From a virus (Duplodnaviria > Heunggongvirae > Uroviricota > Caudoviricetes), in IMG/VR virus record IMGVR_UViG_3300045988_031537: a stretch of 44,853 nucleotides of DNA. The stretch is one strand, 5' to 3'. The translations under genes and the position numbers were made by a program. A model generated the notes under the pieces. It was given only the letters and a program-made list of their open reading frames with translations. It did no database searches and was not told the DNA's origin. Shown here one piece after another: positions 20,740 through 25,250 of the stretch; positions within the stretch are counted from its first letter, which is position 1, and every line of letters starts with the position of its first letter.

Positions 20740-20955
20740 ATGCAACCATCTGAACTAGGCATCCGTGTAGAAAAACGCCGTAAAGAACTCGGCATCTCCC
20801 AGCGCCGTCTGGCGGTGCTGACCGGGGTTTCCCAGGGCGCAATTAACCAGCTGGCACTTGGGGTAACCCAGGACGTCCGCCCGGCAACGCTGTTTAAACT
20901 GGCGGAAGTGCTGGAGGTAGACGCCAAGTGGCTGGCGCTAGGTGAAGGGGCTTAA
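20740..20955 (+). CDS. XRE-family (Cro/CI-like) HTH transcriptional regulator
   Basis: LGISQRRLAVLTGVSQGAINQL helix-turn-helix; AAGGAG RBS; the only plus-strand gene inside the replication block. Confidence 0.7.
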   Translation: MQPSELGIRVEKRRKELGISQRRLAVLTGVSQGAINQLALGVTQDVRPATLFKLAEVLEVDAKWLALGEGA

Positions 20956-20972: not shown

Positions 20973-23213
20973 CTACTCCAAATCCTCCTCTGTCACCACC
21001 AGCATTTCATTCGGTTCGTATATTGTCTTCGGTCTTAATCTGTCGCCCATCTTTTCCGGTATCCTGTATGTGCCCGGTATAACTTCACCGTTAACATCAC
21101 ATCCAAGCATCAACTCACCGTCTTTCAGCATCTTCTCGAGATGGTGGTTGGTGATAGCGTGGTCGCCAGAGTTCGCCACTATCTGCCGTTGGGTAAAACC
21201 GCGTCCGGTGTCGTCGGCCTGCTGCAGGTCTTCCAGCGCGGCGAGTATTGATTCCTTACGCCCTTCATCCTTCCCGCGTTTTACAGCATTCTTTACGTTT
21301 TCTTTACCTTCTTTCGTCAGCCCTTCTTCCCGCTCTTTCTCCTCGTCAGTTTTGAACGGCTCGAAGCCCCACGGCATCAGCACAAGTGCCTTATGTGGTT
21401 CTGGCAGGTCGAGGTTTACGATTGTGCCGTATTCCTCTGTGCTACCCAGGAACTCAACAGCACGGTACTCTTTCGGCGGTGGCGCTTCGCGGAACTGTAC
21501 CGACTCCAGCACCATGCCAACCGTTTTCTGTTGGGGCCCGTGCTTAAATTTAGAGTGGTATACGTTTATCTGACGGTCGGTCGCGCGTTCAATTGTCAGT
21601 TCCACGTCGACGCCAGCATACAGCGCACCACTGCCGCGGGCTTTCTTTCCACCTTTCGGCGTATGGTGGACAACGCCTACTGCGGCTTTAGTCACGTCAC
21701 GTACTTCTTTCAGGATGGCAATGACTTTACCCATGCCGATTGCCGTCGATGAACTGTTCTCGTCGAACTTATCAATCGTCAAAGCCAGGGTCTGGTTTAG
21801 GGTGTCGAAGGCAACCATGCCGATGGGTTCGTCACCCGCAGTTTCACGCATCAACTTAATAAGGCTTTTCAGTTTTCCGACTTCGCCCATGTCGATGACA
21901 TGTACATAATCTTTACCTTCCTCACCATATTTAGCCGCTAGTGCGTCAATACGTGTGCGTGTAGCCGCGCCACCCTCACCGTCGATATAGAAGTGATGGC
22001 AACGCTGGGTGTCCGCCCCGGCGAACCGGTATCCGGCGGCGCTCAGGTACATCATCCCCAGCGTATAGAATGATTTGTACGTGCCGGATTCCCCGACAAT
22101 ATCCCAGATGCAATCTGACGGCATATACCCTTCTACGACGAAATCAGCCTTTACCGGTTCCGGTAGCTCGTCCTCCTCGGGGTCCTCGTCGTCTTCCAGG
22201 TCGTCGAGGCTGCATGAAACAGATTCACGTGCGCCCCAGCCGATAGCCTCAGCGACTTCACTGAACGGGAGACCAGTCGCATCACACGCATATTTCCACA
22301 CCTCTTTCGGCGACATGCCTTCGGTTGCCGTAATGTCAGTGTCGTGGATCATGGTTACGTTCGGCGCTTCGTAGCCCTCGCGCGGGAAGCACAGCAGGAA
22401 GTCGTCCGGGCGCGGCGTAGGGTCGCTGTAATTTTCTGCATGTTCCGGCGTAGCTGGCATCTTAAGGCCGCGGGGCGTCATAACACCGCCGTACTCAAAC
22501 GCCAGCGCCTCAAACGCATCAGTAAACGCGGTACGCAGTTCTTCTGGTATCTGGTAGTCAGATGCGCTGCTCACCTCGTAATCCGGGATGCCTTCCAGTA
22601 ACTCTTCCGGGTCAATCAGGTCGTTTCGGCGCGACCAGATAACGGTAGAGCCAACCGGCGGCAGGTACATAGGCTGCGACAGAGTGAAACCGCTGCGGTC
22701 CGCGCCCATGCCTTTGAAGAAGTGTTCCAGCAATCCATGGCGAACACGGATGATGTCTCCACCTTCAACCGGGCGGCCCAGCGGCATGACGACGCGAAAG
22801 CGTGGTGACTCATCGGTATGGGATGCCGTGGTGTAGAGGCACATAGCCAGGCGGCTGCGCTTAACCAGGCGCACAGCTTCCTGATACTCTTCCGGTGTTG
22901 CACCGTCGAAGTCCAGATAAGCGAGCGACGATTTGCTTACAGACGCGTCACAGCGATAGAAGAAGCCTTTACGCGCCCGCTTAAAGTCTCCTGTTTCCGG
23001 GTCTTTTACGGTGCTGTGTGTAGAGTCGCACGCAGCGGTGATATACCCGGGCGCGGTCTTAGGGTTAATCCCATCACGAACGGCATCGAGTGGCTGGATT
23101 AGCTCTTTCAGGTCGTCCAGTGTTGCCGTGTGGGTGGTTCTGACGTTTATATCCTTTTTCTCTGCCGGCGCGTTGCGACGAGACCACGAGTAGGATAAAA
23201 TTACATCGGACAT
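20973..23213 (-). CDS. Primase-polymerase / RecA-like helicase replication protein
   Basis: N-terminal prim-pol-like region (LDFDG) and C-terminal P-loop GESGTYKS. Confidence 0.7.
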   Translation of the reverse strand: MSDVILSYSWSRRNAPAEKKDINVRTTHTATLDDLKELIQPLDAVRDGINPKTAPGYITAACDSTHSTVKDPETGDFKRARKGFFYRCDASVSKSSLAYLDFDGATPEEYQEAVRLVKRSRLAMCLYTTASHTDESPRFRVVMPLGRPVEGGDIIRVRHGLLEHFFKGMGADRSGFTLSQPMYLPPVGSTVIWSRRNDLIDPEELLEGIPDYEVSSASDYQIPEELRTAFTDAFEALAFEYGGVMTPRGLKMPATPEHAENYSDPTPRPDDFLLCFPREGYEAPNVTMIHDTDITATEGMSPKEVWKYACDATGLPFSEVAEAIGWGARESVSCSLDDLEDDEDPEEDELPEPVKADFVVEGYMPSDCIWDIVGESGTYKSFYTLGMMYLSAAGYRFAGADTQRCHHFYIDGEGGAATRTRIDALAAKYGEEGKDYVHVIDMGEVGKLKSLIKLMRETAGDEPIGMVAFDTLNQTLALTIDKFDENSSSTAIGMGKVIAILKEVRDVTKAAVGVVHHTPKGGKKARGSGALYAGVDVELTIERATDRQINVYHSKFKHGPQQKTVGMVLESVQFREAPPPKEYRAVEFLGSTEEYGTIVNLDLPEPHKALVLMPWGFEPFKTDEEKEREEGLTKEGKENVKNAVKRGKDEGRKESILAALEDLQQADDTGRGFTQRQIVANSGDHAITNHHLEKMLKDGELMLGCDVNGEVIPGTYRIPEKMGDRLRPKTIYEPNEMLVVTEEDLE

Positions 23214-23270: not shown

Positions 23271-23504
23271 TTATTCCAGGTCTTCTAAAGTAGCAGCCAT
23301 TCCGCGAACTTCAGCAACAGCACCATATTTCCCACCAACGTTTTTCACGACACCCGATTTAACCAGTACCTTCAACGACCCTTCAATAATGGCGGAACTA
23401 TAGTACTTAAAATAACTACGGCGCAAGTCCATAACGCTGCACGACCCTTTTTTGCGGGTTAACGAAACGACCGCCGTAAATACGCGTGACTGGAACTCGG
23501 TCAT
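23271..23504 (-). CDS. Hypothetical protein
   Basis: 77-aa ORF between the HTH gene and the primase. Confidence 0.4.
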   Translation of the reverse strand: MTEFQSRVFTAVVSLTRKKGSCSVMDLRRSYFKYYSSAIIEGSLKVLVKSGVVKNVGGKYGAVAEVRGMAATLEDLE

Positions 23505-23671
23505 TTAACGTTCTCCTTAATCCACGCTTCCACTTTCTCTGGGTCAAACGTACCGGGCTGGCGGCGGCCCATAATGCGGATACAACAATCCGGGAACTTC
23601 CCACTCTTTAACCAGTTATTAAGCGTGCGGCGAGTAACCCCAATACGCTCAGCTACCTCATTCTGTGTCAT
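23501..23671 (-). CDS. Small HTH DNA-binding protein (AlpA/excisionase-like)
   Basis: ATG at 23671 with GAGGG RBS; MTQNEVAERIGVTRRTLNNWLKSGKFP. Confidence 0.5.
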   Translation of the reverse strand: MTQNEVAERIGVTRRTLNNWLKSGKFPDCCIRIMGRRQPGTFDPEKVEAWIKENVK

Positions 23672-23703: not shown

Positions 23704-23776
23704 AGTATACATTGCGAATAATGGGAAATCAAACATAATCGCACCTATTGACATTATGGAAATCTTCGTTTAAGGT
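23704..23776. promoter_or_regulatory. Divergent early promoter pair: leftward TTGATT-N17-TATACT, rightward TTGACA-N17-TAAGGT
   Basis: Hexamers with 17-bp spacing on both strands, between the leftward HTH gene and a noncoding stretch. Confidence 0.4.
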
Positions 23777-24011
23777 GCTTCTATATCTTAGTTACTTTTA
23801 TTCTTGTTCACCTTGTAAGAATGTTTAACCCGTGCGTCAAGCAAAGGGTTAAACACAGGCTTACTGAACATTAGAATTATTGTAACTTTCCTTCCTTAGT
23901 ATCTCCGGTTGCCCTGGGCAAGCTCTATTCTCATCGGCAGCATATCTCTTAAGTATCTGATTTTCTTAATGTGCCGTAGATTCGCAACCGTAAAAATGTA
24001 ACGATTAGTGG

Positions 24012-24035
24012 GCAGGCTTAGGGCCTGCCCTTTAG
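24012..24035 (+). terminator. Rho-independent terminator-like hairpin
   Basis: GGGCAGGC-TTAGG-GCCTGCCC followed by TTT. Confidence 0.5.
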
Positions 24036-24102
24036 TTACCAAGTAATAAGAATAAAGGCACAACCCTACCTGAAGAATCACAACGGCAACGTAACTATTT
24101 TC

Positions 24103-24131
24103 TTGCACACCCCAACATAATAGGATACTAT
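24103..24131 (+). promoter_or_regulatory. Sigma70-like promoter, TTGCAC-N17-TACTAT
   Basis: Consensus-like hexamers; about 30 bp nearly identical to the promoter at 1439-1467. Confidence 0.5.
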
Positions 24132-24165
24132 TCACTTATCGAAACGAGACAGATGAGTGAGGGTT

Positions 24166-24357
24166 ATGTTTAGGAAGGGTCAGTTGGTGAAAACGATGTA
24201 CGGTAGCTTAGGTATTATTGAAAAGAAATCGACAGTGTACCGAAGTTCTTATGTCGTTAGCTTACTCAGGGAGCACGGGTTAAGTTCCACGGCGTATTAC
24301 CGAGAGTATGAAATGAAGCTCATAGGCAACAATTTTAAATTCAAAGGGGCGAAGTGA
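24166..24357 (+). CDS. Hypothetical early protein
   Basis: ATG at 24166 after GAGGG. Confidence 0.45.
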   Translation: MFRKGQLVKTMYGSLGIIEKKSTVYRSSYVVSLLREHGLSSTAYYREYEMKLIGNNFKFKGAK

Positions 24358-24611
24358 TGGAAGAATTAATTTGTATTGAGTCTAAAGCAGAAATGGGCGG
24401 TTGGTTTATAAAAGGCAACGAGTATTCGTTGAAAGTACACTACGACGGTCGTCTCTACGTTTTAGACGAGGAAGGTGATGAGTGGGATTTAGAGCAATCA
24501 CATGGTGAAGCCTTTACCGTGAATGTCCTGGGCACACCAGCGGTAACATTCAGAACGGCATCGAATCATGATGCTCGTGCCGACGACTCTGAGGGAGGTT
24601 GCCGTGAATAA
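24357..24611 (+). CDS. Hypothetical early protein
   Basis: ORF start overlaps the previous stop. Confidence 0.45.
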   Translation: MEELICIESKAEMGGWFIKGNEYSLKVHYDGRLYVLDEEGDEWDLEQSHGEAFTVNVLGTPAVTFRTASNHDARADDSEGGCRE

Positions 24612-24675
24612 CTATCCGTTTATTTTAATTGTCAGCGCCGTTTATGCGGTGCACGCGTTGTGGGGGTTGGTATGA
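24604..24675 (+). CDS. Possible 23-aa hydrophobic peptide
   Basis: GTG start after GAGGGAGG; VNNYPFILIVSAVYAVHALWGLV. Confidence 0.2.
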   Translation: MNNYPFILIVSAVYAVHALWGLV

Positions 24676-24827
24676 GAATTCGAATAACTGACCGCGGGCT
24701 TATCGATTTCGGTATCTCGGTAGGTGATGTTTTTATGGCGTTCAGCAGCAACCATTATGGTTTTATGATTGAGTACAAAGGGTCATTATTGTTCGTGTAT
24801 CGGGACGAATGCGAGGTTCTGGAATGA
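24672..24827 (+). CDS. Small hypothetical protein (51 aa)
   Basis: Start and stop overlap neighbours; below the track cut-off. Confidence 0.3.
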   Translation: MRIRITDRGLIDFGISVGDVFMAFSSNHYGFMIEYKGSLLFVYRDECEVLE

Positions 24828-24985
24828 GAGAAGCATTCGAACGGTGGGCCGTCGTCGAGGGTCTGCCCGTTAATAAGGGTTCAAAGAAAGAGTACCTGAA
24901 CGTTAAGACGCGTCTCGCGTGGCGGGCGTGGAAAGCTGGTGCGAATGTAATGGCTGGTGCATTCGAAAAGAGAGGTGATTTATGA
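24824..24985 (+). CDS. Small hypothetical protein (53 aa)
   Basis: Start and stop overlap neighbours. Confidence 0.3.
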   Translation: MREAFERWAVVEGLPVNKGSKKEYLNVKTRLAWRAWKAGANVMAGAFEKRGDL

Positions 24986-25182
24986 GCGAGTGGATTAAGT
25001 GTAGTGAGATGCTACCAGGTAACGGAAGTACTGATAAAGAGTTTCTGGTGTATGAAACGTTGAATAACGCAGTTCAGCACGACTATTACATCGTTCCTGA
25101 TGACGGGAGAAAGCCGTTCTGGAATCACTATGATAAGTACGTGACACACTGGATGCCGTTACCAGAGCCGTCAGAAGTGTGA
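24982..25182 (+). CDS. DUF551-like phage protein
   Basis: C-terminal VTHWMPLPEP motif. Confidence 0.5.
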   Translation: MSEWIKCSEMLPGNGSTDKEFLVYETLNNAVQHDYYIVPDDGRKPFWNHYDKYVTHWMPLPEPSEV

Positions 25183-25216
25183 TGTTCAATAGTTTGGGAT
25201 TTTACTGAGTGACTTA

Positions 25217-25250
25217 CGCTGCTACACAGCAGCGTATCATTTTTCTCATT
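25217..25250 (+). terminator. Rho-independent terminator
   Basis: ACGCTGCT-ACAC-AGCAGCGT followed by a T-rich run. Confidence 0.55.

Follow-up and report, generated by a model that had tools for sequence, protein, structure and literature searches.

A candidate structured noncoding RNA between the replication and early operons of Guernseyvirinae phages

The interval 23748-24035 of the window (the whole 44,853-nt stretch of phage DNA that was analyzed) most likely specifies an extensively folded noncoding RNA, conserved across hundreds of related phages of E. coli and Salmonella. The first-pass annotation had recorded there a noncoding unit bounded by a promoter and a terminator, and this observation is real and lies well above chance. 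From the comparison of homologues, we give about an even chance to the reading in which host RNA polymerase transcribes the unit early into a structured noncoding RNA, which is either ended by termination or read through as a leader. We infer that this RNA is made and that it runs from ~23784 to ~24037; that it acts as a regulatory RNA of the early phase is our working guess. The features of the unit and of its surroundings are given in Table 1.

Table 1. Features of the candidate RNA unit and its neighborhood in the window
Feature	Description	Position	Strand	Basis
Helicase-primase gene	AAA_25 core; phrog_3228 match	20973-23213	-	
77-aa protein gene	phrog_5169, function unassigned; predicted winged helix	23271-23504	-	AlphaFold pLDDT 84.5
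HTH gene	HTH_17	23501-23671	-	Pfam match
Leftward promoter of HTH/winged-helix/primase operon	TTGATT-N17-TATACT	23704-23732	-	Consensus scan
Promoter P1	TTGACA-N17-TAAGGT	23749-23777	+	Sequence read directly; comparison with relatives
5' long imperfect hairpin	98 nt, 36 bp in six helices, conserved CCUU bulge	23790-23887	+	
Pyrimidine-rich linker	Predicted unpaired, UUCCUUCCUUAGUAUCUCCGG, one TAGTATC motif	23888-23908	+	MFE and centroid structures
Small hairpin H2	UUGCC-CUG-GGCAA	23909-23921	+	RNAalifold
Conserved core	CUAUUCUCAU, then helix CGGCA/UGCCG (23935-23939/23972-23976)	23924-23979	+	RNAalifold consensus
Core inner helix	UUAAG/CUUAA, loop UAUCUGAUUUU, inside CGGCA/UGCCG	23949-23953/23965-23969	+	
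3' terminator-like hairpin		23998-24039	+	Two terminator scans
Early promoter P2	TTGCAC-N17-TACTAT, palindrome AATAG-N4-CTATT; neighbor, outside the RNA	24103-24131	+	
First rightward gene	ATG	24166	+	
Other P2-type copies	-10 elements	25353 (+), 20703 (+), 37152 (-), 1443 (-)		
71-aa ORF	Cro/CI (XRE)-like HTH; behind a P2-type consensus promoter	20740-20955	+	

The window is a Kagunavirus (Guernseyvirinae) genome, and the phage is one of E. coli. The 601 nt around the unit matched ~450 phage records with 60-99% identity, from Escherichia Kagunavirus and Salmonella Jerseyvirus, both Guernseyvirinae. The unit is located in a 450-nt gap, with the HTH/primase operon reading leftward and the early genes reading rightward. 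The leftward HTH gene and the rightward early promoter, which had been named as its flanks, were correctly identified. In Bas73, a fully annotated relative, the leftward operon on one side of the homologous gap encodes a small HTH protein, a small hypothetical protein, the helicase-primase, a gp2.5-like SSB, a DNA polymerase, and others. In the rightward block, numerous small genes precede those for lysis, packaging, and structure, and the gene set as a whole contains a T7-like replisome. The GC skew across 24001-25000, directly downstream of the unit, was +0.25, the highest in the genome.

Among the relatives, the HTH gene and the next promoter were consistently ~430-480 nt apart, and the content in between was a mosaic. 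Class A, which includes the window, most Kagunaviruses, and the Jerseyviruses, has an AT-rich 5' hairpin. In class B, represented by 15 IMG/VR loci, the 5' domain is unrelated and G+C-rich and folds on the plus strand, with 22 consensus pairs, four double changes, and two invariant G·U pairs. Classes C and D, the latter being phage K1G, have further unrelated 5' domains. A core of GUCUAUU, 21 nt, AAGUnnCUGAU, and then UGCCG was common to classes A, B, and D and was degenerate in class C. In all classes, a GC-rich hairpin preceded the next promoter by ~60-70 nt. When IMG/VR and metagenomes were scanned for more homologues, just 13 class-A loci were gained beyond the IMG/VR set, and these were mostly redundant.

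The sequence of the putative rightward promoter P1 was present as had been claimed, with TTGACA at 23749-23754 and TAAGGT at 23772-23777. Its hexamers were kept in the homologues, though a consensus scan did not call it because the -10 element agrees with the consensus at only three of six positions. Among 38 distinct homologues (13 of the P1 loci having been gathered with a pattern that contains the -35 element), the -35 element was always TTGACA, the -10 element was TAAGGT in 24 and TAAGTT in 14, and the spacing was 17 nt in 37, with 11 of the 17 spacer positions variable. The invariance was identical in the 24 class-A loci that were gathered via the HTH protein and not via the -35 pattern. 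This pattern of conservation is that expected of a used promoter, and its transcript would start near 23784. Sigma-70-like promoters were retained at the same place in classes B, C, and D (TTGACT-N17-TAAGCT with a preceding TG, TTGAAA-N18-TATAAT, and TTGACA-N16-TAAAAT, respectively) despite the unrelated sequences downstream. The leftward promoter and P1 are arranged back to back, and the leftward hexamers were also conserved across Kagunavirus and Jerseyvirus homologues.

The 5' hairpin begins 6-7 nt past the predicted P1 start. Its MFE was -35.9 kcal/mol (z = -6.79), and none of 200 shuffled sequences was as stable. A 9-bp-stem inverted repeat had been reported at 23820-23851; the repeat exists, but it is 10 bp long (23822-23831 with 23846-23855) and forms the tip of the 98-nt hairpin. 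The sequence of this apical part (23822-23855) differed between close relatives. There were at least five versions within Kagunavirus and another in Jerseyvirus, and the shape was the same in every homologue. Whole helices were swapped between genera, for example from UGAUUC/GAAUUA to UAAGUU/AACUUA, and three Watson-Crick types were seen at single pairs.

A covariance model (R1) was built from six sequences and used to realign 36 loci, giving alignment A4. In A4, 96.7% of the pair cells were standard and 19 of the 36 pairs had changed on both sides (218 cells); these counts are inflated by the fitting of A4 to the model structure, and the cells are not independent events. The covariation score was 0.449, whereas column shuffles scored 0.166 (0 of 500 reached the observed value) and slid controls, in which the partners were moved by 1-3 columns, scored 0.10 or less. 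The bulges and internal loops of the hairpin were conserved, which fits a selected imperfect fold. The comparison indicates that the fold is kept by compensatory change, and the helix swaps are hard to explain otherwise.

The minus strand folded nearly as well (z = -4.85 and -6.17). The plus strand was the more stable one in just 24 of 35 homologues, so the choice of strand by folding energy alone was dropped; in Jerseyvirus homologues the minus-strand fold was often the stabler one. Wobble pairs decide the strand instead, because A·C cells would be G·U on the opposite strand. In the model structure of the 5' hairpin, G·U occupied 47 cells at four positions and A·C occupied three cells. In the 3' half, the changes common to several sequences were from A-U or U-A to G·U or U·G (nine, five, and five sequences), and A·C mismatches were found in one or two cells at any pair, eight cells in all. 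The wobble bias and the position of the hairpin just past the predicted P1 start favor a predicted plus-strand RNA. Given the stability of the minus strand, a DNA hairpin or cruciform keeps some probability, and a hairpin on the displaced non-template DNA strand would give the identical wobble bias.

Several signals in the interval belong to the DNA. The CTTA(G/A)TATC-like repeats of the first-pass annotation were found as TCCTTAGTATCT at 23893-23904 and TCTTAAGTATCT at 23947-23958. The motif WAGTWWC, which was defined after inspecting the region, had eight copies in 23740-24140 compared with a genome mean of 0.59 per 400 nt, a 13-fold enrichment and the genome-wide maximum. The window contains the P2 consensus, cTTGCaCaCCCCAACATAATAGGaTACTATTCA, five times, and each time a Shine-Dalgarno sequence and an ATG follow ~30 nt downstream. 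In all five copies the palindrome AATAG-N4-CTATT, which contains the WAGTWWC core, overlies the -10 element. A PHIRE analysis of Kagunavirus fBC-Eco01 listed the P2 motif as a promoter for a 'phage-encoded RNA polymerase' (PMC9825357). The annotation of the close relative Bas73 lists no RNA polymerase gene, and P2 has the appearance of a sigma-70 promoter that incorporates an operator.

Three small DNA-binding proteins are encoded nearby: a 56-aa HTH_17 protein, the 77-aa winged-helix protein, and the 71-aa Cro/CI-like protein. The model of the 77-aa protein had Foldseek TM scores of 0.6-0.76 to LexA-N, MotA-N, and MarR folds. All 24 class-A loci had its gene, whereas the 17 class-B and class-C loci lacked it and had unrelated small genes in its place; the co-occurrence with the class-A region may be simple linkage. 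The 71-aa ORF runs toward the end of the helicase-primase gene within a replication cluster that is otherwise leftward, and Bas73 has no annotation for it. The WAGTWWC motifs are putative operator half-sites for these proteins and probably overlap the DNA of the unit. We consider it very unlikely that the interval is nothing but a DNA-level control region, with divergent and tandem promoters and operator half-sites for small HTH proteins, in which the RNA has no function and the hairpins are by-products of inverted operator sites or of quasi-palindrome correction. Operators keep sequence and not complementarity, yet the five or more apical sequences all stay paired; operators alone do not explain pairing that is conserved while the sequence changes. 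The basal helices change on both sides between genera, and the excess of G·U over A·C is unexpected for double-stranded sites. The points in favor of such a region are the enrichment of WAGTWWC and the same core inside all five P2 palindromes, a perfect palindrome, GTAACTTCAAGTTAC, at the predicted P1 start of the Jerseyviruses, the three DNA-binding proteins encoded close by, and the constant company of the winged-helix gene.

Downstream of the 5' hairpin, the linker was conserved in class-A homologues. In H2, U-A alternated with U·G in five Jerseyvirus sequences, and class B has UUUGGG-AGG-CCCAAA at the equivalent position. In the core helices, the only one-sided changes were from A-U to G·U (nine sequences) and from U-A to U·G (five sequences). 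The GC-rich hairpin and T-run that had been placed at 24012-24035 were confirmed as a stem at 24010-24030 followed by TTTAGTT, and this was the top-ranked terminator-like site in both the local and the 20-kb scans. The 3' hairpin (z = -3.55, compared with z = -5.15 for the whole unit) has the lower stem GUAAC/GUUAC, the upper stem GGGCAGGC(U)/(G)GCCUGCCC at 24010-24030, and the tail UUUAGUU at 24031-24037. A similar tail belongs to a predicted terminator elsewhere in the genome, at 37450. The terminal stem had one compensatory change, C-G to U-A. Four variants of the 3' module were found among the relatives; a usable U-tract was present only in the variant of the window, and one other had a weak one. 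The GC hairpin was still there in the three of four variants classed as without a U-tract. Because of these three variants, the relatives may not commonly produce a discrete terminated RNA.

These features of the 3' end bear on the form in which the RNA would act. It may be a structured 5' leader or attenuator and not a free RNA, so that P1 transcripts mainly read through 24010-24030 into the early genes and control them in cis through stability, processing (e.g., RNase III cutting of the long hairpin), or termination. The unit is directly upstream of the early operon, and read-through is likely in the relatives whose 3' variants lack a U-tract. In the window the U-tract is short, and pairing of the lower stem would put it in an internal loop. 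Even so, we regard this as rather unlikely: the strong consensus promoter P2 separates the unit from the first gene, which means that the bulk of early mRNA could be made without the leader, and the 24010-24030 hairpin is the best terminator-like site. Another terminator (25215-25236) is similarly located upstream of a P2-type promoter (25353). By sequence alone, a small RNA and a leader are inseparable.

In the reading that we prefer, the unit would be a separate early transcription unit encoding a ~250-nt structured noncoding RNA on the plus strand. Host sigma-70 RNA polymerase would start at P1, and the first 100 nt would fold into the long bulged hairpin. The pyrimidine-rich unpaired linker, the small hairpin, the core stem-loop displaying UAUCUGAUUUU, and the GC-rich 3' hairpin would follow. 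The 3' hairpin with its short U-tract would stop much of the transcription just upstream of P2, and the transcripts that escape would become a structured leader for the early operon. The conserved unpaired core or linker would bind a partner, either RNA or protein, and the two terminal hairpins would protect the RNA from nucleases. The WAGTWWC motifs in the same DNA interval would also serve as operator half-sites for the small DNA-binding proteins of the adjacent genes. A small RNA or a leader had been among the three roles first proposed for the unit, and both gained from the promoter, the covarying fold, the plus-strand G·U bias, the lack of an ORF, and the terminator-like hairpin.

Comparison of the homologues revealed no conserved ORF in the unit on either strand, and their alignment contained 1-nt indels. 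A hidden small protein was rejected, as the 79-aa minus-strand ORF at 23896-24135 was shortened or missing in many homologues and the short plus-strand ORFs were shortened or missing in relatives. The earlier statement that the interval has no credible ORF thus held. Several GenBank genomes annotate 'hypothetical protein' ORFs over the unit, e.g., Bas73_0055 (PQ850603.1 37112-37432, minus strand). Such an ORF is probably a gene-calling artifact because it is not conserved among the homologues.

A covariance-model scan, which had been suggested as a check, assigned the unit to no RNA family. Rfam 15 gave no match over the window at the gathering score and no match in five relatives at E ≤ 1. 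A permissive Rfam scan gave one chance-level match (E = 0.78), which was outside the unit, and the C4 model of Rfam did not match the unit. No tRNA or tmRNA genes were found. The unit was absent from 5,426 E. coli genomes, indicating that it is neither host-derived nor a prophage element. It is not described in the literature that could be searched, where a time-course paper on a Kagunavirus (K1B4, PMC12645636) reported annotated genes only.

Three candidate modes of action were tried and rejected. An antisense target within the phage found no backing, as complementary matches to the rest of the genome were no more than 11-12 nt long, which is at chance level. For anti-Shine-Dalgarno pairing of the linker or a (CACU)n module with the ribosome-binding site of the first gene, the short complementarities did not co-vary between phages. 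A boxA/boxB-like reading of GCUCUAUU beside H2 failed in the Jerseyviruses, which have GCUAUAUU. By scan and inspection, no promoter-like site was found on the minus strand to the right of the 5' hairpin, and the unit is therefore not antisense to anything. A CACT run was observed ~90 nt upstream of P2 in two loci with the 3' variant 3c (L023 and L026), with ~6-7 copies versus three. This run is predicted to be unpaired and is complementary to GAGUGAG of the ribosome-binding site of the first early gene.

A replication origin, the other role first proposed, was weakened and is circumstantial, drawing on low GC content, a GC-skew minimum, and repeated motifs. Here P1 transcription into the AT-rich hairpin region would open or prime the DNA for a T7-like replisome, and the repeated WAGTWWC motifs would be initiator-binding sites. 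The unit adjoins the replication operon and contains the genome maximum of these motifs, and its GC content over 23783-23889 is 33%. The cumulative GC skew has its minimum near 24000, although this is confounded by the switch of coding strand with which it coincides. The hairpin is nearly all Watson-Crick and folds on both strands, and its wobble bias would also fit the displaced DNA strand. We nevertheless consider an origin unlikely. The conserved bulges and internal loops of the hairpin fit a selected imperfect fold. In class-B2 phages the primase-helicase is 94-97.5% identical to that of the window, yet an unrelated G+C-rich domain replaces the hairpin, which disfavors an origin. Conversely, Jerseyviruses keep the hairpin with a primase that is just 62% identical, and class-B1 phages have a quite different primase (29% identity). 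With the intergenic class thus independent of the primase, an origin loses two things that it predicts: a conserved element for unwinding and a hairpin specific to the primase.

Known types of origin gave the same picture. At a T7- or T4-type origin an AT-rich element is kept wherever the same replisome is used, and here the G+C-rich domain was found beside primases of 94-97% identity. An iteron or ssi-type origin, as in RSF1010 or P4, did not fit, as no tandem repeat or iteron array was found and the intergenic class did not follow the primase. A transcription-primed origin that needs just a promoter keeps some probability. The octamer TGTTCACC at 23805-23812 resembles the P4 iteron. A P4-type origin based on it was rejected: the octamer occurs once, the Jerseyviruses have TGTTTCACC, and the primase of the window is AAA_25-type, not P4-alpha-like.

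The unit was also compared with known phage and plasmid systems. Like lambda oop and the lambda PR'-tR' 6S RNA, it has a predicted host-polymerase promoter, no ORF, and a terminator-like hairpin at most a few hundred nt downstream, and it is located in a control region beside the start of an operon. Unlike them, it has no sequence or Rfam match and is much more structured, with its 98-nt 5' hairpin. Furthermore, oop is antisense to a gene and the unit is antisense to none, and no Q-type antiterminator is annotated in a close relative. The predicted RNA also resembles HK022 put, a structured RNA encoded directly after an early promoter and before a terminator, in a phage where no protein antiterminator is obvious. 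Put consists of two adjacent stem-loops, ~70 nt in total, that act in cis on terminators. The unit instead has a single 98-nt hairpin followed by further elements, and the strong P2 after its predicted terminator means that antitermination is not needed for the early genes.

With the early leader of T7, the unit shares T7-like replisome genes, tandem host promoters before small early genes, and a long bulged hairpin resembling an RNase III substrate. With the T7 primary origin, it shares a promoter followed by AT-rich DNA beside replication genes. However, the hairpin of the unit is at the extreme 5' end of the predicted transcript and is followed by a terminator, not a gene, and there is no sequence similarity to T7. 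The AT-rich element is also replaced by GC-rich sequence in relatives with the same primase. CopA, RNA I, P1 c4, and P22 sar resemble the predicted RNA unit in their long bulged stem-loop, their own promoter and terminator, and their location beside replication genes, but for the unit neither a conserved promoter on the opposite strand nor a target transcript overlapping it was found, and the C4 family did not match. The unit resembles oop and 6S in kind and put and the T7 RNase III hairpins in position, and it fits the definition of none of them.

Guernseyvirinae (Kagunavirus and Jerseyvirus) rank with those phages that are most frequently isolated and proposed for use in therapy and food safety. 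In some 450 GenBank genomes the region is present, either with no annotation or with dubious 'hypothetical protein' ORFs. If the preferred reading of an early structured noncoding RNA is true, the unit would represent a new phage RNA family, would likely be a regulator of the early program, and would correct current annotations. The RNA would sit where the genome switches from the replication operon to the early operon. The modular diversity behind a fixed promoter is unusual and raises its interest, and the replacement by unrelated structured RNAs in sister phages would provide natural swap variants for tests of function.

The region 23950-24049 was 92-98% identical to Salmonella Jerseyvirus, and this identity reached past the 3' hairpin. 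The primase gene was 60-80% identical to those of the Salmonella Jerseyviruses in DNA and 62% in protein. The near-identity of the 3' half across genera points to very strong constraint or to a recent swap of the module; it may come from recent exchange or from DNA-level constraint and not from the function of an RNA. As for the mosaic itself, the locus could be a hot spot for interchangeable early noncoding RNAs ('RNA morons') in virulent Guernseyvirinae, with their diversity driven by an arms race, an idea that we hold to be improbable. The idea would draw on four or more mutually unrelated 5' domains, each structured, and on four or more 3' modules, combined with one conserved promoter and core, and on modules exchanged between E. 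coli and Salmonella phages. Example roles would be decoys or inhibitors of host defense or RNA-processing factors, or exclusion specificity between competing phages.

Some further observations were made on the individual loci. Over 23950-24099, three Salmonella loci (L020, L022, and L037) were 92-98% identical to the window, with one 50-nt block reaching up to 100%, and the genes flanking this stretch were 60-88% identical between E. coli and Salmonella phages. The replication module was a mosaic, with loci L023, L026, L027, L032, L035, and L044 on one side and L019, L031, L041-L043, and L045 on the other. In class-B Kagunaviruses, the helicase-primase was 29% identical to that of the window in some and 94-97% in others. 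Class D corresponds to locus L085 (phage K1G), positions 1160-1440 read on the minus strand of the locus, with a near-consensus TTGACA-N16-TAAAAT promoter before it. Its 5' domain was joined to the shared core and a 3b-type 3' module.
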